40,214 bases of DNA. Source: Candidatus Methanomethylicia archaeon. Lineage in GTDB: Archaea > Thermoproteota > Methanomethylicia > CALHIW01. Positions 732 to 10,869 of the stretch are shown here, one piece after another. The translations under genes and the position numbers were made by a program. Each line of letters opens with the position of its first letter. Position 1 is the stretch's first letter. The DNA lies in assembly GCA_038845975.1 (NCBI GenBank), contig JAWBQF010000024.1, forward strand, positions 1 through 40,214. The letters run 5' to 3'. The notes under the pieces are model-generated. The model saw nothing but the letters and a program-made list of their open reading frames with translations, searched no databases and had not been told where the DNA came from.

Positions 732-1006
732 AACAAATACCTGAGTAAAAAACATATATTCAACTAATAATTATAGTAGCCATAGCAATTATATTAGTTT
801 TCAAAATGTTAAACTTACTTTACAAACTTAAGCTATCAACTAAGTATACTTCATATTAAAATTCACATGGCCGATAAATTAAACTAATTTAAGAGTATGT
901 CTTAAATATAATATTAAAGTTTCGCACTTTATTATGTTTTAAAGCAGGCAATCAGTAGGAAATCATAATTTGTAAAACTCCAAGTAGTATTTAAGTATAA
1001 TGGTGG

Positions 1007-1786
1007 TTACGGCCATGGTCTAGCTAAAACTAGAGTTTCATTATACCCTAAATAAAATTTAATATATAACCCTAAACCAGTAAGCATAATGCATAATAGT
1101 GTAAACAGCATATCATGTAGGGTAAAGTTAAGCTCGTGAAAGTATGATCTTTTATTTGAATAGCCAAATGCTCTTGATTCCATGGCTTCAGCTATTTGAG
1201 CTGCCCTTCTAAATGAATTTATAAAAAGAGGTATAAGAATCGGCGTAAATCGTTTAATTCTAATAATAAAACTTCCGCTTTCAAGTTCAAGACCTCTAGA
1301 TCTTTGAGCGTCGATTATTGTTTGGGTTTCCTTAGCTAAAGTAGGGATAAATCTTAAAGCCATTGTGAATGCTAATGCATAATCGTATGGAACCTTAAGC
1401 TTTATCAATGCTCTTGCAAAGTTTTCAGGATAGGTTGTCATGAAAAAAATGGAAAATGCGGAAATTATTGTTAAAAACCTTAATGCTAACGAGCTAGATA
1501 AAGATAATGCATTTTCAGCTGGAAGTAAAAAGTAATTTAGTATAAATATCATTAGAACTATTATGAAGCTACCTTTCATTGATTTTAGCCATTCATTTAC
1601 AGCTTTTGCAATAATTACTAATGGGATTGTTGATATAAATAGAATTAACATAGGGTATAGTTCTGAAAATATTAAAGATAGGATAAGTACTGATACTATG
1701 TATATTAGTTTAGCTCTAGGATCAAGACCGTGTAAAACAGTATTATTTCTATTAAACTTAAAGCCTTGAACTATATTTAAACTCAT
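1007..1786 (-). CDS. ecfT: ECF transporter transmembrane component T
   Basis: N-terminal LDPRAK, hydrophobic helices, AQRSRG and AMESRAF coupling motifs; follows two ABC ATPases. Confidence 0.93.
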   Translation of the reverse strand: MSLNIVQGFKFNRNNTVLHGLDPRAKLIYIVSVLILSLIFSELYPMLILFISTIPLVIIAKAVNEWLKSMKGSFIIVLMIFILNYFLLPAENALSLSSSLALRFLTIISAFSIFFMTTYPENFARALIKLKVPYDYALAFTMALRFIPTLAKETQTIIDAQRSRGLELESGSFIIRIKRFTPILIPLFINSFRRAAQIAEAMESRAFGYSNKRSYFHELNFTLHDMLFTLLCIMLTGLGLYIKFYLGYNETLVLARPWP

Positions 1787-1790
1787 ACTG

Positions 1791-2627
1791 TTACCTCCTT
1801 ATAGCTCGTAAAAGTTCATCTCTCATTTCCCATACATACAATACATTTTTTGATACTATTGAATCAAACCTAGATGCAAGATAAGGAATTTGAGGTGGAA
1901 GAAGACGGGCCTTTAATAGAAGTTCAAAGTTTGTTAAAATATTCCTTGTGAGGTCATATGCAAGAACCTTACCTTGTGAAAGAATAATGGTTTTAGGAAA
2001 ATTCTCACATACAAATTCAATATCATGAGTTACAACAATAATAGTTTTACCTTGAATATGTAGGAGCCTAATTATTTCCGAAAGTTTTTGTTTCTGAGCG
2101 TAATCTTGACCGATAGTAGGTTCATCCATTACGATTATAGACGGGTCGTAAGAAAGAATAGATGCTATAGCAACTCTTTTACGTTCACCCCCACTAAGTG
2201 AAAATGGAGAGACTTTACGATATTCCCATAAATCAAGCATTTTTAAAATTTTTTCAACACGTAGTGAAATTATATGTTCTGGATAATTAAAATTTCTCAA
2301 TGCAAAGGATACCTCATCTTCAACTGTTTCAGCAAACAATTGATGATCTGGGTTTTGGAAAACTATTCCAACCTTTTTGGAAAGTTTAGCTACACTTGTA
2401 TTTTTGGTATTTTCCCCATATATGTAGACATTACCATGTGTTGGCTTAAGTAGACCATTTAAATGCTTTATAAGTGTTGTCTTACCAGCTCCGTTTTCAC
2501 CTAGAATAGCAATAACTTCTCCCTCATTAATACGCAAGTTAACCCCTCTTAGTATTGGCTCTAAGTCTGAATAGCTAAACCATACATCTTCAAATACGAT
2601 AACTGGATAATTAAGCTTAATTATCAT
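1791..2627 (-). CDS. ecfA2: ECF transporter ATPase
   Basis: Walker A GENGAGKT, FQNPDHQLF, LSGGE signature, DEPT Walker B. Confidence 0.92.
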   Translation of the reverse strand: MIIKLNYPVIVFEDVWFSYSDLEPILRGVNLRINEGEVIAILGENGAGKTTLIKHLNGLLKPTHGNVYIYGENTKNTSVAKLSKKVGIVFQNPDHQLFAETVEDEVSFALRNFNYPEHIISLRVEKILKMLDLWEYRKVSPFSLSGGERKRVAIASILSYDPSIIVMDEPTIGQDYAQKQKLSEIIRLLHIQGKTIIVVTHDIEFVCENFPKTIILSQGKVLAYDLTRNILTNFELLLKARLLPPQIPYLASRFDSIVSKNVLYVWEMRDELLRAIRR

Positions 2628-2631
2628 AATT

Positions 2632-3480
2632 TTATCTACTTAAAAGCTTTCTTAAGAGCAGTTCTGCCTCATCAATGTTGAGCGGAGGAAAATCGAGTTT
2701 AAGATTATTTAAAAGTAAATCTTCATATAGTAAAATTAACTTTGGAACCCCTATGCCGATAGCCTTTATGATGGGATTCGTAAAAACTTCACGTGGTCTA
2801 CCTTGAAGTATTATTTGTCCCTTATCCATAACAATAACTTTATCAGTAATTGAAGCTACCATATCAAGCCTATGTTCAACAAGAATTATAGTAAGATTTA
2901 ATCTCTTTCGAATACTAGATAAAGTATCAAACAGTACTTTACTACTTAATGGATCAAGATGAGCTGTCGGCTCATCAAGTACAAGTATTTTAGGTCTCAT
3001 AGCAAGGCATGCTGCAATAGCAACTTTCTGTTGTTCACCACCTGAAAGTTCATATGGAAATTTATGTCTTAAATGTTCAATTCCAAGAATACTTAGAACT
3101 TCATCTACCCTCTCTCTTATAATATCCCTTGGAAGATTAAGATTTTCAAGACCAAAAGCTATTTCATCTTCAACACTTAACATTATAAGTTGGTTTTCGG
3201 GATTTTGAAAAACCATACCTACTCTTTGAGCAAGTTTGCAAGTTTTGTTTTCAGCAATATTGAGACCATCAACAGTAAGTATTCCTTTGAGCTCCCCTTC
3301 ATAGAAGTGGGGAATTAAACCATTAAAACATCTACAGAGAGTTGTCTTACCACATCCACTTGGGCCAGTAATAAGTACAAATTCTCCAGGATAAATTTTA
3401 AGATTAATTGATTTAATTGCCCATCTTTCTTCACCAGAGTATCTAAATGATAAATTTAAAGCTTCAATAATTGGATTCAT
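2632..3480 (-). CDS. ecfA1: ECF transporter ATPase
   Basis: GPSGCGKT, NGLIPH, FQNPENQ, LSGGE, DEPT. Confidence 0.92.
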   Translation of the reverse strand: MNPIIEALNLSFRYSGEERWAIKSINLKIYPGEFVLITGPSGCGKTTLCRCFNGLIPHFYEGELKGILTVDGLNIAENKTCKLAQRVGMVFQNPENQLIMLSVEDEIAFGLENLNLPRDIIRERVDEVLSILGIEHLRHKFPYELSGGEQQKVAIAACLAMRPKILVLDEPTAHLDPLSSKVLFDTLSSIRKRLNLTIILVEHRLDMVASITDKVIVMDKGQIILQGRPREVFTNPIIKAIGIGVPKLILLYEDLLLNNLKLDFPPLNIDEAELLLRKLLSR

Positions 3481-4514
3481 TTATATTGATCCCTCTTTAT
3501 TAACTTTTCAATCGTTAAAACGCATAATTTCAAGATATTTTCGACATTATCACTAAAAACCTCAGCGCATGCTGCAAGATTATGTCCCCCACCATACCCA
3601 TTAAACATTCTGCCAATAGGGTCCATTAAATCTCTACTTAAACTTAAACTTGTATTTTCGTAAAATTTTTCACTACATCTAGCACAAATACGTATCTTAT
3701 CTTTATCTAATTTATTAGCTACAATTGCAACATCAGCTCCTAAACTAATAAGAATATTAGCTACTGATGATTCATAAGCTCCAATATACGTTGTAACAAC
3801 AATGTAGTTTTCAATTCTATTAATGCTAATTCTTTGACAGGCCTTTAAGCGAGCAATACGTTCAGAGTTGGATAATGGCTCATGTAGAAGCTCCAAAACA
3901 GCATTATAATTAACGCCTGCTTTTATAAGACTTAAAGTGGATTTAAAAGTTAATGGGGAAGCTCTCTGAAAACGGGATGTATCTGAAATTATTCCAGCAA
4001 TTAAAAGAGAGCCCACTTCTAATGGAATATTTACATTAAGCTCTTCATAAATTTTAACGATTATCTCTGAACATGATTGAGCTGTCGGGTCACATATAGT
4101 TATCAATGCATTTTCAACAATATCATTATCTAATGAGTGATGGTCAATAATTATCAAGTCTTTATTTAAATGTAAAATTTTACTAGAATATTGAGCAAGC
4201 ATACCTAAAGAAGCAGTATCCACAATTACTATAGTTTTAAAGTCTTCAAGATTAAAGCTTTCAAAACTAACCTCAACATTAAACTTTTCAGCTATACGTT
4301 TAGCAGTAAGATTTAGACCGTTAGGAAAAACCATTTTTACATTTGCATTAGGTTTAATCAGCTTTATTAATCGATAAATAGCATATACGCTAGCAAGAGC
4401 ATCAACATCAGCATACTTATGGGTAAGAATAACTATAGATGAGAAAGAATATTTACAGAACTTAAATAATTCCTCATTAAGATCCTTTAAGAATTTTTGA
4501 GAGTTCACGGTCAA
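3477..4514 (-). CDS. DHH/DHHA1 family phosphoesterase (NrnA-like)
   Basis: TH..AD.DA, VDT, IDHH, SDT motifs and C-terminal GGGH. Confidence 0.88.
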   Translation of the reverse strand: MTVNSQKFLKDLNEELFKFCKYSFSSIVILTHKYADVDALASVYAIYRLIKLIKPNANVKMVFPNGLNLTAKRIAEKFNVEVSFESFNLEDFKTIVIVDTASLGMLAQYSSKILHLNKDLIIIDHHSLDNDIVENALITICDPTAQSCSEIIVKIYEELNVNIPLEVGSLLIAGIISDTSRFQRASPLTFKSTLSLIKAGVNYNAVLELLHEPLSNSERIARLKACQRISINRIENYIVVTTYIGAYESSVANILISLGADVAIVANKLDKDKIRICARCSEKFYENTSLSLSRDLMDPIGRMFNGYGGGHNLAACAEVFSDNVENILKLCVLTIEKLIKRDQYK

Positions 4515-4767
4515 TCACTTGAAAACCCATACTAATACTCTCATCAATAATATTGTTAATATTAACATTCATTGACCAACCTAGATTAATATCAACAGAT
4601 ACATCAAATGTAAGTTCATCATTTCTTAGTACCTCAATAGATACATCAATGTTTACAGCATTATTTACCCCAATATGTTCACTAATAAAATTTATAATAG
4701 CATCATATGCCTTGGATGCTATATTAGCTATTTCATCATCAGATAATTCAGTAGCTCTCTTAACCAT
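4477..4767 (-). CDS. small acidic protein, probably DUF3194-like (usually follows prefoldin beta)
   Basis: 96 aa alpha/beta pattern, position directly after pfdB, overlap with DHH gene. Family assignment rests mainly on synteny. Confidence 0.55.
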   Translation of the reverse strand: MVKRATELSDDEIANIASKAYDAIINFISEHIGVNNAVNIDVSIEVLRNDELTFDVSVDINLGWSMNVNINNIIDESISMGFQVIDRELSKILKGS

Positions 4768-4780
4768 AGCTTTATCATTC

Positions 4781-5161
4781 TTATTCAGACCCTGAAGACT
4801 TACCTAATGATAGAAATTTTAGATCAGTAGTCAAATCTTTTTGGAGCTCTTGAATTTGAGCACGAGCTACACTTTCCTGTCTAGCTAAAGTCTTAATATG
4901 AAGTTCAAGAGTGTCTTTTTTATCGTTTAATTCACTTAAAATTTTATCTCTGGGAACTCTTACTAGAACATAACCCGTAGATTTATATACGGGAGTTTCA
5001 TCAGATATATTACTAAGTTCAGCTATTGCTTCTTGAACTTCATGAAGTTCATTTTCATATTGACTTTTACGTATAGTAATGACCTTTAATCTTTCCTGGA
5101 GATCTTGAAGACGTAATAGTTTATGTTGGGTTTCTACTGGTAGTTCCTCAATACTACTCAA
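4781..5161 (-). CDS. pfdB: prefoldin beta subunit
   Basis: Coiled coils flanking the VYKSTGYVLV beta hairpin; TTG start preceded by SD GAGGTGAGG. Confidence 0.92.
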   Translation of the reverse strand: MSSIEELPVETQHKLLRLQDLQERLKVITIRKSQYENELHEVQEAIAELSNISDETPVYKSTGYVLVRVPRDKILSELNDKKDTLELHIKTLARQESVARAQIQELQKDLTTDLKFLSLGKSSGSE

Positions 5162-6689
5162 CTACCTCACCTCTTAACTCGATTATTAGCCCTAATTAAT
5201 AAATCTTAAGTAGCAAACTTAAACTTTTTGCATATACTTGTCGATATCATAACAGCATCAATATAGTTACTAATGATTTCAGTAACGATTAGATACTGTG
5301 AATTCTAGATCAACTTTAGCATTAGCAGTTTTTGAATATATGTTTAATTCTTTTCAGTATTCAAAAAGACTTTTTATTTCTTCTATTAATATCCATAGCA
5401 ATTAGTTGCTTTACCTAAATTTCTATAATCTTCAATTAATCTTCTTTAACCTTATTAAGCACTAACTCACAAAAATAAGAGAACAACTTCATAAATAGTA
5501 GAGAGTAGTTTTTATGCTAATATGATTTGCTTTAAACATTACATCAATAATATCAAGCTAGTATAGTATTTCAGACAACTAAAAAGATATTATACTTGTT
5601 AACATGTTTATAAATATAAACTTCCATTTCAAAAACAAGTAAAACTTAAAATTATAAATGCTTAAGTTTATTTCATGTAGGACGTGGAAATATAATTATT
5701 TTAGGTCCTTAACTCTTATATTTCTCTGCTGTATATTGTTTATGAGGTTAGGGTTCTTATTGATCGATGAAGAGGTAATCTCTTTGCATGTTTTCATGAA
5801 AAAGCAAGAATATTTAAAGTATAGGAGAACTTAGCAATAACTATGAATTGTTTGATTAAGCAATGAGATAGAAAAATCATAGTTAAGCGGCATTAAAATA
5901 TCTAAGCTATTTGATATCTCTTAGATTGAAGTATTGATTACTATATGGAACACTCAACAAGAATTCTATATATAAGATAAATAAAAGCTACACATGAAAG
6001 ATATTAATGAGGTACAAGAATAGTCTATAAAAGACTTAAAGAGTTATTTAAAGCCTAAATCCAGAATGCAATAAGAAGATGAAAAGATAAGAATTCTTAA
6101 AGAAGATAATTTTAAAGATAAGCTTGAATTGAACATATTCAATAATAACTTTAAAGTGTATACCTAAGGGCATAATGGAGATAAAACATTTGAGAGAAAT
6201 AAGAGATTAACATATTCATAACAAGTTATATTCAATGAAATAAAAAGATAATATTTAACATTTGATAGAAGGAAGAATATAAAATTCGAGAAGTACATAA
6301 ACCATATATTAAGTAATAATTGTAATAGATAATTCAAACACATAATTAGAGAAAAAATGAAGTTCCTTAAATAAACATGAAATATTTAGAGCTATTCTAT
6401 TATTAGAATGCTTACTACACTAACAAGCATACAATAGAGCATTGAGATACACGATATACTTAACAAACACTGCGAGAACTTCAATGAACTAAAAAGAATA
6501 ACAGAAAACGATCAGCAGCTAAAGGTTGTTAGAAGAATGATAAAATTATACTCCTAGAATATAGCAAAAATAGACTTAACTTAAACTTAGCATTTAGGAG
6601 AAGCTACAATATATTATTAAGTTGTCATAATCTTAACTTAAAAGAAAATAATTTAATGCTCTTTAATGAGGTTGCTGTGGTTGTTAGTT

Positions 6690-7649
6690 TGTAGATTGTT
6701 TTAGAATTTCTGTTATTGTTTCAGTTGGGTTTGTTCTTCTTAATTTTCTACATGTTTAAATGCTGTTAGGTATGGGATTATATTACATATTTCTCTATGT
6801 ATTGTTAGCTATTGTCTTAGTATTGATGCCTTATTCTTATAATTATTTACATGGCATTTATCTTTAATCCATTCACCATCTGAATGGTCTACGTATTCAT
6901 GAATATATCCTAGCTTGCTTAAGCCCATGTACAAGTTGAAGCTATCCATGTATATCGTTGAGCTCTTCTCAACCCGTCTACCTAAGATCTTAAGAGCTGC
7001 TTGGATTCAACATTGCTTAATGGAACATAATCCCCTGCTCCTACCAGCGATTATGAATACGTTGGCTTATCGTAACTCCATAACCCACGTCTTCTCATAC
7101 TCCAGTCTTGATGGTGTTTACTATTCTAGGTTTGGTCTTATAAGATATCTCTGTAAGGATTGCTGGTTTAATGATCAGACTGAAACAGCCCTCCACTATT
7201 CTAGACCTAGCCTTAGAGAATGACCTCCCTCCTAAACCATGAAGCTTATATAATTCACCTCATGATTTAAGCTTGCTTCCAGATAAGAGCCCAATGACTA
7301 TCTTTAGGGCTTTAAAGAAGCTCATGTTAAGAATTAGAAGTAAGATTGATAAAATTAAGTTTAAGAGAGCTATTAAGGTTGATGAACTATACGTTAACGC
7401 TTAATTGAAGGGTAGGAATAATGTTGAGCTCTTTCTAACTTCCACGTTTCCTTAAGATATCTCTTAAGGCCATCTTTATAATTCCCATGACCATTAACTC
7501 TACTAGAATATATCTGGAACAGTAAACATCATTAACCCATACCTAACAGTCCTAAACAATATAGAGCAAACAAGCTCACTAGAAAGAAAACCGAGAACAT
7601 TCATAGAAAACATCAGAAAGCAGTCACAAAAACCTTATTGAATAGTGCC
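6690..7649. mobile_element. scrambled IS1595-family transposase remnants
   Basis: Minus ~7100-6740: RRRG..DKP, VEKSSTIYMDSF, GYIHEYVDHSDGEW, CHVNN. Plus ~7105-7420: RYLCKDC.FNDQT and KVDELYVNA*LKGRNN. Minus 7649-7450: end GGCACTATTCAATAAGG and Zn-ribbon remnant. Many stops and frameshifts. Confidence 0.75.
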
Positions 7650-7680
7650 ATTTAAAAGCATTAATATTTTAATCATCAAG

Positions 7681-7738
7681 GGCTCAGTACTCAAGATCTA
7701 AATCATCAACATCATCAGGGTTGGAATAATCATCGCCT
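7681..7738 (-). ncRNA. box C/D guide sRNA (predicted target C34 of tRNA-Leu(CAA))
   Basis: Minus strand reads G-GCGATGA (C)-TTATTCCAACC-CTGA (D')-TGATGT-TGATGA (C')-TTTAGATCTTGAGTA-CTGA (D)-GCC, ~58 nt. TTTTTATG lies ~25 nt upstream. Confidence 0.82.
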
Positions 7739-7770
7739 ATATTTTAGAACGGGTAAACATAAAAACTTAG

Positions 7771-8160
7771 CTACAGAAAACCTTTTCTTTTAAGCGATTT
7801 AATAACTCTTTTAATTTCATCAACATTATCCTCGCCAATGAGTTTAGCAACATCTGTAGGTCTAAGATTAGGGCTTCTTTGTAGAACTTCTAAAACTTTA
7901 CGTTCAATAGAGCTCATAGATTCAAGTATTGAAGATGATGGATGAATAAGTATGTATAGTATAGCGCTGCCAGAAACAACAGCAACCTTAGATTTTTTAT
8001 CCAAATTATCAACAACATCTTCTAATATCATGTTAAAGTAGTCTGTATCGATAGATGTTAATGTTCCTCTCATAACACGTCCATCAACAAGATATACTTC
8101 AACAATATTGCCGATAAGCTTTCTGAGTCTCATTGAAAATCTAGATGTAGATCGACGCAT
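7771..8160 (-). CDS. Lsm/Sm-domain protein with C-terminal winged helix-turn-helix
   Basis: Sm1-like LIGNIVEVYLVDGRVMRGTLTSID..FNMILEDV and Sm2-like VVSGSAILYI, then IERKVLEVLQ..PNLRPTDVAKLIG..VDEIKRVIKSLKRKGFL. Start moved from track 8211 to ATG 8160 because TTTTTATA lies ~30 nt upstream. Confidence 0.8.
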   Translation of the reverse strand: MRRSTSRFSMRLRKLIGNIVEVYLVDGRVMRGTLTSIDTDYFNMILEDVVDNLDKKSKVAVVSGSAILYILIHPSSSILESMSSIERKVLEVLQRSPNLRPTDVAKLIGEDNVDEIKRVIKSLKRKGFL

Positions 8161-8339
8161 ATTAGACACTAAACATATCAGAGAGCTTCCAATATAAAAA
8201 TTTTTATACATAAAGTTCTTAAGATTTTTCTTTATTGTTTTGCAAGTAGCTCTATACCTGCTTGGTTGAAGCTATATTTTAGCATTTAAAAATAGATTTT
8301 CCTCTTCATCCAAATAAGTATCAAAGATTGTAGTTAGTA

Positions 8340-8776
8340 TATGCTCTATGAGGTAGATTGTTTATGTTGCATTTAAACTATTGTTAAGGAGGATTCTATA
8401 TGTATGGGTTTGTGAGTTGCAGCATATTTACATCCTTAATATTCATTAAGAAAATTAGAGCTCTCTACGGTTCTAACATAATTGTATTAAGTGATGGTAC
8501 TCATTATTATAGTCATGTAGAATATTGAATTTAAACATGAAGTATATAGTTTAGAAGTTAGTTAATGGAGAGGATCATACAGTATGTTAAGGATAGAACT
8601 AGAGTATTCGATAACTACATACCGTGTATGAAGGATAAATGTGATAGTGAACATGTATCCATCTTATAAAACCAATAGTATAGCTAACAAACTGGATTAC
8701 AAAAAGATAAAGCCAAGAATTCATAGAAACACAAACCAAAAATATAGGTAATAAACATGCTTAAGTTAACAAAGCC
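8340..8776 (+). mobile_element. 3' half of IS6-family element (pseudogene)
   Basis: Homologous to the reverse complement of ~26064-26520; encodes LSDG and MERIIQYVKDRTRVFDNYIPC..KCD.EHV; ends in TIR AAGTTAACAAAGCC. Confidence 0.8.
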
Positions 8777-8805
8777 GTTGATGTTTGAATCTATAGCTTA
8801 CCTTA

Positions 8806-9105
8806 TTAATATCTATCATTAACTTTATATTCACTAGAATCAATTCTATTTAAAGATTCAAATACTCTACTAAGCAAGATATTAACAGGGTTGTTTTTAT
8901 CTATTTTAAAGATTCTGATTTTACCAAATCTCTTCTCCTTAACTAATCCAGCCTCTACAAGCTTTCCTAAGTGGTACACTACTGCTGAATAGTTAAGAGC
9001 ACATTTATGCATTATAGCTGAAATATTAAGTTCCTCCTGCTCTAAAAGTAATTTTAAAATCCTAACTCTACCTCTTGATGATAATATATCCTCAATGCTT
9101 ATCAA
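8806..9105 (-). CDS. ArsR-like winged-helix DNA-binding protein
   Basis: RVRILKLL, ELNISAI, YHLGKLVEAGLV..KRFGKIRIF wing; overlaps the cdc6 stop. Confidence 0.82.
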   Translation of the reverse strand: MISIEDILSSRGRVRILKLLLEQEELNISAIMHKCALNYSAVVYHLGKLVEAGLVKEKRFGKIRIFKIDKNNPVNILLSRVFESLNRIDSSEYKVNDRY

Positions 9106-10348
9106 GACGTCTTCCTCTTGTAACTTGTTTATTTACTTCATTCGTAATTATTTTAATCAGCTCTTTTTCAATTGCTTCTGCTGGAGCATCTACAAGACCT
9201 ATTAAAGTTGTTTTTCCACGGTAACCTGAACCTGAAATCTTAGTGTTTATTACTCCAATATTTTTAAGATTTTGAATATACATATATACTTGTGTATGTT
9301 TTCTTGGGTCTTGGCTCCATAAAGCACATAATTGTATGTATTCATCTTCTACTTCACCCATAGTAATGTACGCTGTTTGCTTTTTTCTAAGTGCTTTAGC
9401 TACCGAAAGTAAAATTAGTTTTTCATGCAATTGTAAGTTTTGAATATCTTCAATGCTTATCGTTCCTTCAGCCCTGGCCATTCTAACATGTTCTGGAAGT
9501 ACCCTAATAGCATTTAATCTTTCAGCTATTTTTGCTGCTTTCCACAGTAATCCAAGAGCATAACGAGCATCACCACGATGTCCACTTTCATAGGGGGCTG
9601 AAACCATGTCAGATATTAACTCAATAGCCTCTTCAGAAACTACTCCAGGATAGAATGTTTCAATAATCCTAGCATTCAATATATCTCTTAGTTGTGTTGA
9701 TGTGTATGGTTCAAATCTAATCGTATTATGTAATAATGTACTTACAGTAGTTTTATCAAGCTCGTATAAGATATTTGTTTTTCTTGATATCAGTATAATG
9801 CTTATTCTCTGTGGTTCATTAAGTTTTTCATCTGCAAGTCTAATTAAGTCATAAATAAGATCTTCCCCACTTTTAGGTATTAAAAAATCAGCCTCATCAA
9901 GGGTTATTATAGCATGCATTGTATGGGAATTTAAATAGTCATGGATCATAGCAAGCAATTCAAAGGGTGAAAATCCTCTTTTAGGTAATTCAGGACATAT
10001 TTCCTGAACCATTTTACGAGTAATAAGGAAAAGCGTTCTATCTTTATGACAATTTATGTGAATGTATTTAAGCTTTAAACCCTTATGTGTTGCATAATCA
10101 ATTACTGATTGACCGAAGCGTTTTGCAACAGCAGTTTTTCCAGTTCCAGTTTCACCCGTTAGCATAGCTTTCTGAAAGGTTTTTCCCTTTGTTTCTATAA
10201 CAATTTTAAAAATTTCAGCTAATCTTCGTAAATGTTCCTCTCTATGTGGGAGAGATGGTGGAACATACTCTGGAAGAAGTTTACTCTCATCTTTTATAAG
10301 CCGTTTCAATGTAAATACGTCCTCAATAATTTTATACATACGATACAC
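9092..10348 (-). CDS. cdc6: Orc1/Cdc6 AAA+ protein (Orc1-2-like by its C-terminal wing)
   Basis: YVPPSLPHREE, Walker A GETGTGKT, HINC, LDEAD, FEPY, GDAR sensor 2, wHTH with SGSGYRGKTTLI. Confidence 0.95.
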   Translation of the reverse strand: MYRMYKIIEDVFTLKRLIKDESKLLPEYVPPSLPHREEHLRRLAEIFKIVIETKGKTFQKAMLTGETGTGKTAVAKRFGQSVIDYATHKGLKLKYIHINCHKDRTLFLITRKMVQEICPELPKRGFSPFELLAMIHDYLNSHTMHAIITLDEADFLIPKSGEDLIYDLIRLADEKLNEPQRISIILISRKTNILYELDKTTVSTLLHNTIRFEPYTSTQLRDILNARIIETFYPGVVSEEAIELISDMVSAPYESGHRGDARYALGLLWKAAKIAERLNAIRVLPEHVRMARAEGTISIEDIQNLQLHEKLILLSVAKALRKKQTAYITMGEVEDEYIQLCALWSQDPRKHTQVYMYIQNLKNIGVINTKISGSGYRGKTTLIGLVDAPAEAIEKELIKIITNEVNKQVTRGRRLDKH

Positions 10349-10869
10349 TAATTTAGTTTTACCACTGGTTAGATAAAAATATAAGAGTTAGCTGAAAGTA
10401 TTCATAATCAATTTTAAATTATTTAGAATTGAATGAAACTAATATATGTTCTAAAAGGAATGAACACTCTATGAACTTAGCATGTTTAATCATTTTAATA
10501 TTGTTTTTGTAAATTTTCAACATTTATTTCCACTATCTATGTTTATAGAATATTATTGTTCTCATAGCACTAATGAATAATTTTCACATCCTACTCATAA
10601 TTATTGAAGATTTTAGTTCTATTCTCAAAGAGCAGATATTTAAAGTCTCATTTTACTCTTATTTAGCAATCTTCTGTTACTGATCGTTTTATCATAGAAG
10701 CTCAGCTTTATAATAAGAGTAGTAACAAAACGGACTTAATAAATTTAAAATGGATTAAAAAGTTGTAGGAAAATATTATTAATGAAATAATTAACATGCT
10801 TGAGTTTATAGAATCTATAAGTTATCATATAGATTTATTAGGAGGAGAAAGTATTTTCATTGGTTAGCA

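Follow-up and report, generated by a model that had tools for sequence, protein, structure and literature searches.

The window analysed here is a stretch of 40,214 nucleotides (nt) from a hot-spring Candidatus Methanomethylicia archaeon (assembly GCA_038845975.1, contig JAWBQF010000024.1, positions 1 to 40,214, forward strand). Between positions 7681 and 10348 it carries, on the minus strand and from high to low coordinates, a cdc6 gene, a gene for an ArsR/SmtB-type helix-turn-helix (HTH) protein, a gene for a small protein that joins an Sm/Lsm barrel to an HTH domain and is named Lsm-HTH here, and a candidate box C/D sRNA. An earlier reading of the letters and their open reading frames (ORFs), referred to as the sequence-only reading, had proposed that this series may form a regulatory module. 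All four elements are present on the minus strand as described there, but the series is not a conserved module.

The Lsm-HTH gene occupies positions 7771..8160 of the minus strand (129 amino acids plus stop). A mechanical ORF call runs from 7771 to 8211, where an upstream ATG would give a protein of 146 amino acids. The ATG at 8160 is most likely the start codon, because database relatives (84-100% identity) are 129 amino acids long, because the frame of the sister species opens just five codons ahead of the same methionine, and because the upstream ATG sits in an A/T-rich, TATA-like stretch.

Domain architecture of Lsm-HTH

The N-terminal part of the protein (residues 1-73; 7942..8160, minus strand) is an Sm/Lsm barrel of the type found in the Sm-like archaeal protein SmAP3, as indicated by Pfam, an AlphaFold2 (AF2) model, Foldseek and an Sm-only profile of the family. 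The match to Pfam LSM (PF01423) reached 34.6 bits against a cut-off of 23.4 (E 1.6e-8; residues 29-87 of the 146-residue ORF). The AF2 model, computed from a 13-sequence alignment with a mean predicted local distance difference test (pLDDT) of 85.8, comprises an N-terminal helix, five strands and four helices; its Sm part consists of the helix at residues 5-13 and strands at residues 19-24, 29-38, 43-51, 56-62 and 67-73. The top Foldseek matches of the model were archaeal SmAPs, among them 5mki with an E-value of 1.6e-6 and a TM-score of 0.8 relative to the target. The barrel is followed by a serine-rich linker (residues 74-84, PSSSILESMSS; 7909..7941, minus strand), in which six of the 11 residues are serine and the pLDDT dips to 69.

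Residues 85-129 (7774..7908, minus strand) form a three-helix HTH domain of the Lrp/AsnC type, an assignment based on Pfam HTH_24, profile matches in the PDB and model superposition. In the window protein itself the HTH signal is weak (HTH_24 E 0.049 for the whole protein, 0.0031 for the domain alone), while HTH_24 was found in all 28 family members scanned, with a best E-value of 3.2e-12. The C-terminal domains of these 28 members also matched MarR (26 members), TrmB (26) and HTH_AsnC-type families (22). In the PDB, the C-terminal family profile matched the Lrp/AsnC proteins PH0140, PH0061 and FL11, the MarR-type AdcR and the archaeal transcription factor TFE, with E-values from 4e-8 to 1e-5. 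Folded alone, the domain gave a pLDDT of 85.8, and its model superposed on Lrp/AsnC HTH domains with TM-scores of 0.68-0.76 and a root-mean-square deviation (rmsd) of 1.0-1.6 Å over 46-51 columns. The Foldseek E-values of the lone domain were modest (0.06-0.5) because the domain is short.

The fusion of the two domains is real, and the sequence-only reading was right that an Sm fold, a serine-rich linker and a three-helix HTH occur in one protein, as judged from the LSM score above cut-off, the serine content of the linker and the presence of HTH_24 throughout the scanned members. Its term 'winged' was loose: the domain has three helices without a beta wing, and in the AF2 model the protein ends three residues past the last HTH helix. 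The Pfam scan of Lsm-HTH gave no match to the RAM (AsnC_trans_reg) domain, and no WYL family appeared among the Pfam matches at E <= 1. The ESM Atlas returned no usable match. A four-copy complex prediction scored 0.47, 0.09 and 0.08; it was run without controls and has no bearing on ring formation.

The likeness of the HTH to TFE raises the possibility of a co-transcriptional adaptor, in which the HTH would contact RNA polymerase or the opened DNA strand in a TFE-like manner and the ring would hold the nascent RNA, a coupling of RNA to DNA of the kind that the sequence-only reading had considered. The family profile matches archaeal TFE (1q1h) with an E-value of 5e-7, and Pfam TFIIE_alpha is found in 23 of the 28 members at E <= 0.1. 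However, Lrp/AsnC and MarR-type regulators match equally well or better, and thus the TFE likeness appears generic to the fold. The gene context in a survey of 31 loci (see below) contains no link to the transcription machinery either. We therefore regard such an adaptor function as improbable.

Lsm-HTH is a fourth kind of archaeal Sm protein

The genome of the window encodes four Sm proteins, namely SmAP1 (79 amino acids, adjoining an L37e-like gene), SmAP2 (75 amino acids), a SmAP3-type protein and Lsm-HTH. The SmAP3-type protein, encoded on contig C21, has 144 amino acids and a C-terminal domain that aligns with those of SmAP3s. For comparison, the Pyrobaculum aerophilum (Pae) SmAP3 structure 1m5q aligns at full length, both domains included, with SmAP3-type proteins that another family of the phylum encodes (E 8e-12).

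The C-terminus of Lsm-HTH is not the SmAP3 domain. When the alignment of 28 Lsm-HTH C-terminal domains was compared with five SmAP3 C-terminal domains using hhalign, the probability was 0.3%. By sequence, 1m5q matched Lsm-HTH in the Sm part only (residues 27-73, E 0.58), and its superposition on the Lsm-HTH model was poor (rmsd ~7 Å over 89 columns). The sequence-only reading had made its case dependent on this point, and it holds in that respect.

The barrels, on the other hand, are related. In a comparison with the Sm-only profile of the family, two SmAP3s of the other family scored 50.5 and 46.3 bits, and SmAP3, SmAP1 and SmAP2 of the window's genome scored 29.4, 21.8 and 21.2 bits, respectively. 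Since SmAP3s lead this ranking and the alignment of the Lsm-HTH and SmAP3 barrels is gap-free over the Sm domain, the barrel is SmAP3-like and joined to an exchanged C-terminal domain. Lsm-HTH and SmAP3 are paralogues rather than orthologues, because the genome has a separate SmAP3 gene; and since the same genome encodes separate SmAP1, SmAP2 and SmAP3 proteins, Lsm-HTH is the fourth Sm paralogue, a kind of archaeal Sm protein distinct from the other three.

Distribution and database status

A search with the single protein detected matches covering both domains in 32 of 41 genomes (own genome included), with 30-42% identity outside the genus, and in none of the seven genomes of genus g5. With the family profile, 45 of the 59 other genomes in the class gave full-length matches (E <= 1e-30); by family they were present in 29 of 32 genomes of f4, in 0 of 10 of f5 and in 0 of 1 of f9. 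Beyond the class, six of 341 other genomes of the phylum, belonging to three families, contained a full-length match, and these sequences were inspected. The fusion is hence conserved, a point on which the sequence-only reading had depended. An apparent natural split into separate Sm and HTH genes, P0062 and P0060, was rejected, as they represent a frameshifted copy of the fusion.

In public collections, HMMER with the single sequence returned 15 proteins at E <= 1e-3 from 1.84 billion representatives, and a word-indexed search of a protein collection with the family alignment yielded 53 clusters at E <= 1e-10. A search for related loci with the single protein recovered just the sister species and one weak match. 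The source bins of the clusters are Methanomethylicia or Verstraetearchaeota; one cluster member on a contig of 1733 nt is labelled 'Candidatus Atribacteria bacterium', which is probably a binning error. Members carry names such as 'snRNP-like protein', 'LSM domain-containing protein' and 'winged helix-turn-helix transcriptional regulator', and the combination of Sm and HTH is visible in precomputed Pfam annotations. Full-text searches of the literature, covering the main articles, returned no paper describing an archaeal Sm-HTH fusion. Lsm-HTH is thus catalogued in databases, uncharacterised, and undescribed as a fusion in the literature.

Gene neighbourhood

To place the gene in context, the flanking DNA of 31 homologues was retrieved, up to 7 kb per side, and the ORFs were clustered; some contigs were short. 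Loci L044 and L054 are omitted from the neighbourhood map, while the cluster counts cover all 31 loci.

A cdc6 homologue was present in eight of the 31 loci, and 23 had none within the fetched DNA. An ArsR gene follows cdc6 directly in all eight (nine of nine with the window). In the seven cdc6 loci outside the genus the gene order is Lsm-HTH, a metallo-beta-lactamase (MBL) fold gene, in one family only an S51 peptidase gene on the opposite strand, THUMP, cdc6, ArsR, MoaC and MoaA. Locus L056 keeps this block, with its THUMP / MoaC synteny, without the cdc6-ArsR pair. Given L056, the pair looks cassette-like (loci with the pair: L031, L039-L043, L053).

In the sister species (L030), a 7.4-kb block containing Lsm-HTH (window positions 789-8216) is inverted relative to cdc6-ArsR. 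One breakpoint of this inversion lies at the edge of a dispersed repeat of ~445 nt. A further 1.8 kb of the window (5847-7650) are absent from the sister species (G001). Because the gene order differs in the relatives and the block is inverted in the sister species, the direct adjacency of cdc6-ArsR and Lsm-HTH is specific to this genome. The linkage to cdc6, whose conservation the sequence-only reading had made a condition, is therefore loose: the pair occurs in eight of 31 loci, with reversed order in the seven outside the genus, and the block is inverted in the sister species. Lsm-HTH is best regarded as an independent gene outside any cdc6-ArsR operon.

These data also bear on the proposal that Lsm-HTH, Orc1-2 and the ArsR-type protein act together as a regulatory module, for instance in the DNA-damage response. 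In the window the genes are neighbours in the same orientation, seven loci of three other families have a cdc6-ArsR pair no more than ~3.5 kb away on the same strand, and Orc1-2 is reported to be a DNA-damage regulator in Saccharolobus, the only group for which this role is known. The absence of cdc6 from the fetched DNA of 23 loci, some of them on short contigs, speaks against such a module, as do the mixed housekeeping block that lies between and around the genes where the pair is present, locus L056 with the block and without cdc6-ArsR, the inversion in the sister species, and the multi-copy repeat between the genes in the window. We consider it very improbable.

The commonest neighbour of Lsm-HTH is instead the MBL-fold gene, which encodes ~320 amino acids and occurs in 16 of the 31 loci. 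It lies directly downstream on the same strand in 11 loci and is convergent in five. The same-strand loci are listed as L033-L037, L039, L041-L043, L056, L059 and L060 and the convergent ones as L031, L032, L036, L053 and L058, with L036 appearing under both. In L056 the two genes overlap by 4 nt (stop/start). The protein is a member of PRK04286, a group of archaeal hypothetical proteins; a search by sequence found no relative of it in the PDB. In the window's genome the MBL orthologue is located on another contig. Neighbours in other families are unrelated and include GH57, OsmC and a glycosyltransferase, as well as aNop56, fibrillarin, DUF61, a PRK04140 regulator and a radical SAM/SPASM enzyme.

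This context would also fit a different role, in which Lsm-HTH, like SmAP1 and SmAP2, would act as an RNA chaperone or as a cofactor of RNA processing. Its ring would bind RNA, the HTH would be an accessory module for RNA or partner binding, and the neighbouring MBL-fold enzyme would be the partner. Besides the true Sm domain and the nearly invariant Asn of its Sm1 loop, the adjoining PRK04286-type gene in 16 loci and its overlap in L056 are in line with this, as are the box C/D sRNA candidate 33 nt past the stop codon in this genus and one family in which aNop56 and fibrillarin precede Lsm-HTH on the same strand. However, the sole nuclease-related match of the MBL protein is a weak local one to aCPSF1 (E 4e-4; 18.7 bits, cut-off 580), the orthologue in the window's genome is unlinked, and in five of the 16 loci the gene is convergent and hence not co-transcribed. 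Furthermore, the Arg of Sm2 is lost, the Sm part is acidic and the HTH is of a DNA-binding type. We consider an RNA-cofactor role rather unlikely.

The cdc6-ArsR pair

The cdc6 gene (9092..10348, minus strand; 418 amino acids) encodes an Orc1/Cdc6 paralogue that is not of the Orc1-1 type (Orc1-2-like), as determined with Pfam, NCBIfam and a comparison of paralogues. It matches Pfam Cdc6_C, Cdc6_lid and AAA_22 as well as NCBIfam NF001623 (405 bits, cut-off 311). The genome contains two Orc1/Cdc6 genes. The other copy scored 424 bits against Saccharolobus solfataricus Orc1-1 and passes NF001625, compared to 152 bits against the same protein for the window copy, whose best match is Pyrobaculum Cdc6 (1fnn, 194 bits). 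The earlier label 'Orc1-2-like' is therefore fair, with the other copy being of the Orc1-1 type and the window copy closest to 1fnn. Raymann et al. (PMC3914693) infer a loss of Orc1-1 in Thermoproteales, the order of Pyrobaculum, and state that in S. solfataricus no paralogue other than Orc1-1 coincides with an origin.

The downstream ArsR/SmtB-type gene (8806..9105, minus strand; 99 amino acids) overlaps the cdc6 stop by 14 nt. It matches HTH_5 with an E-value of 2.5e-9 and NF033788 with 48 bits, below the cut-off of 55. The two genes form a conserved overlapping pair, in which the ArsR partner has ~90 amino acids across the loci.

Upstream, an AT-rich spacer of 520 nt (10349-10869) separates cdc6 from a divergent gene for a zinc-ribbon protein of 66 amino acids. 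No repeats resembling origin recognition boxes (ORB) were seen in this spacer. The GC skew changes sign near 10 kb, by the spacer, which may merely follow gene orientation.

Dispersed repeats between the genes

The sequence-only reading had described the DNA between the genes as mostly insertion sequence debris. None of the ORFs in the 594-nt spacer between ArsR and Lsm-HTH or in 5658-7404 matched a transposase family, and the small ORFs in 5658-7404 matched no Pfam family. The region contains short dispersed repeats instead, and its derivation from insertion sequences is thus unsupported. The ArsR to Lsm-HTH spacer includes a non-coding repeat of ~445 nt (8335..8779) that has at least 40 further near-full copies of 78-83% identity in the 2.77-Mb genome (228 candidates at first look). 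Neither a terminal inverted repeat nor an ORF family was detected for it; a miniature inverted-repeat transposable element (MITE)-like element and an RNA gene are options. Fragments of a second dispersed repeat family (~6638-7657) lie within the 1.8-kb stretch (5847-7650) that is absent from the sister species. This family has 26 partial matches elsewhere in the genome (67-92% identity), and those copies are intergenic, too.

In public Logan contigs from four runs of four hot-spring metagenome studies, both single-copy flanks were present and the repeat was tiled, and none of the contigs spanned the ArsR-repeat-Lsm junction; the contigs break inside the ~445-nt repeat. One contig per run in these four runs, at single-copy depth, joins 8370 to 8753 and skips the repeat. 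This could represent an empty-site allele, with just 24 nt on the short side of the join, and was hence not counted.

The box C/D sRNA candidate

The 57-nt candidate (7681..7737, minus strand) starts 33 nt past the Lsm-HTH stop codon and shows four boxes in the order C, D', C' and D, the C box with one deviation. Its layout is GCGATGA, an 11-nt spacer, CTGA, a 5-nt loop, TTGATGA, a 15-nt spacer and CTGA, enclosed by GGC/GCC ends. Guide spacers of archaeal C/D sRNAs measure ~12 nt; with 11 and 15 nt in the best box assignment the candidate departs from this rule. The four-box pattern occurs three times in the 2.77-Mb genome, against no instance in any of five random genomes from a first-order Markov model. 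The two remaining matches (C15:39282 and C44:605) have canonical spacers of 12-13 nt and are likely box C/D sRNAs.

Sequence comparison with the sister species revealed 55 identical positions out of 57, with 33 of 38 nt identical before and 19 of 22 nt after the candidate, and much lower identity beyond. Rfam gave no match at gathering scores. A scan by E-value placed SNORD52 over exactly 7681-7737 with 23.9 bits (E 0.022; gathering score 45). The guides had no complement of 10 nt or more in seven rRNA sequences of four relatives, and comparison with 16 tRNAs (up to two mismatches) gave nothing except two weak Ala-tRNA matches. The window's genome is 93% complete and has no assembled SSU or LSU rRNA gene; its 16 tRNAs were predicted by aragorn without intron settings. 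A perfect 11-nt match at C11:5327 was rejected as a guide target, since it falls on the beginning of a protein-coding frame and is within chance expectation.

As regards the earlier assignment as a C/D sRNA, the box order stands, the SNORD52 match has the exact span with a score below gathering, and no guide target was found. The element is a reasonable sRNA candidate, possibly cut from the 3' untranslated region of the Lsm-HTH transcript.

A possible multivalent DNA-binding ring

What could a SmAP3-like barrel with an HTH do? The reading we favour, which we put at somewhat less than an even chance, is that Lsm-HTH is a multivalent DNA-binding ring that possibly responds to RNA. In this model, the SmAP3-like barrel, which in place of the SmAP3 C-terminal domain bears a three-helix HTH of the Lrp/AsnC type on a short and flexible linker, would assemble into a ring like other Sm proteins. 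As the sequence-only reading had also surmised, such a ring would display several HTH domains; these are basic and would sit along its rim. The ring would mainly serve as an oligomerisation platform and perhaps sense a ligand or RNA, similar to RAM in Lrp/AsnC proteins or the Sm-like WYL domain in HTH-WYL proteins. The HTH domains would bind DNA multivalently, so that the protein would be a transcription regulator or a nucleoid-associated protein, and RNA or oligonucleotides may modulate this binding. Published descriptions give homo-heptamers for SmAPs and a 14-mer for Pae SmAP3 (PMC12817955, PMC3710371).

Several observations suggest that the ring provides mainly a scaffold, with nucleic-acid binding left to the HTH. 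Acidic residues prevail in the Sm part (median net charge -4 in 27 full-length members), whereas the C-terminal part is basic (median +6 in 32 members) and in most members followed by an extra K/R-rich tail. None of the aligned family members has the Arg of the Sm2 'RG' motif; its position is taken by Ser, Pro or Met. The protein with the nearest barrel, SmAP3, is reported to be dispensable in Sulfolobus acidocaldarius and to co-purify with negligible RNA (PMC12817955).

Other observations weigh against a DNA-binding ring. In SmAP-RNA structures the uridine pocket is built from an aromatic residue and the Asn of the Sm1 loop together with the Arg of the Sm2 'RG' motif. The Sm1-loop Asn (N43) is nearly invariant in the family, and an aromatic residue is usually found two positions before it (Tyr, Phe or Leu there); the uridine pocket is therefore partly retained, and the ring may still bind RNA. 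The window protein itself is off-trend, with a charge of +3 in the Sm part, +3 in the C-terminal part and no basic tail. An odd-numbered ring would also lack the two-fold HTH pairs used by classical Lrp-type operators. The MBL-fold gene directly downstream on the same strand in 11 loci could point to RNA metabolism instead.

A more specific version of the DNA-binding ring holds that the Sm ring is the oligomerising, nucleic-acid-sensing core of a DNA-binding regulator, in which binding of RNA or oligonucleotides alters the engagement of the HTH domains with DNA. We offer this mechanism as a speculation that is rather unlikely to be correct. Irrespective of the mechanism, a class-wide fourth paralogue with a recognisable DNA-binding HTH provides a concrete handle on the role of augmented Sm proteins. 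With 129 amino acids, Lsm-HTH is a small and easily expressed candidate for linking RNA-type and DNA-type recognition.

Comparison with known systems

Archaea of this supergroup have been described with three Sm proteins (PMC12817955). The augmented archaeal Sm forms treated in a review (PMC3710371) are SmAP3 and zinc-finger-Hfq fusions, and the words 'helix-turn-helix' and 'winged' are absent from it. According to the same review, SmAP3 is the sole augmented protein with an N-terminal Sm domain and a solved structure, and its extra domain has no clear function. SmAP3 (Pae 1m5q and Sulfolobales) resembles Lsm-HTH in having an N-terminal Sm barrel with the same loop lengths and an extra C-terminal domain of ~55-70 residues, but its alpha/beta domain is unrelated to the HTH. 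The zinc-finger-Hfq fusions of thermococcal plasmids are likewise augmented Sm proteins with a nucleic-acid-binding add-on, which according to the review (PMC3710371) may target DNA. They differ by an N-terminal C2H2 zinc finger and an Hfq-like barrel, a distinction drawn from their published description.

The Lrp/AsnC regulators, or feast/famine regulatory proteins (FFRP), such as PH0140, PH0061, FL11 and LrpA share the three-helix HTH, placed on a domain expected to oligomerise. Lrp/AsnC proteins form discs via their RAM domain. Their HTH is N-terminal, in contrast to the C-terminal HTH of Lsm-HTH, and its partner is RAM instead of an Sm barrel.

The bacterial HTH-WYL regulators (PafBC, DriD, BrxR) also pair an HTH with a beta-barrel of Sm-like fold. 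The similarity is confined to the design logic: Lsm-HTH has no WYL match, shows the opposite domain order and is far smaller. The HTH-WYL barrel is reported to act as a sensor of nucleic-acid ligands that controls transcription, including that of DNA-damage genes (PMC4012209, PMC6789036, PMC12340889). If the RNA-responsive mechanism proposed for Lsm-HTH were true, it would constitute a direct RNA-to-transcription or RNA-to-chromatin switch in archaea and an independent counterpart of these bacterial factors.

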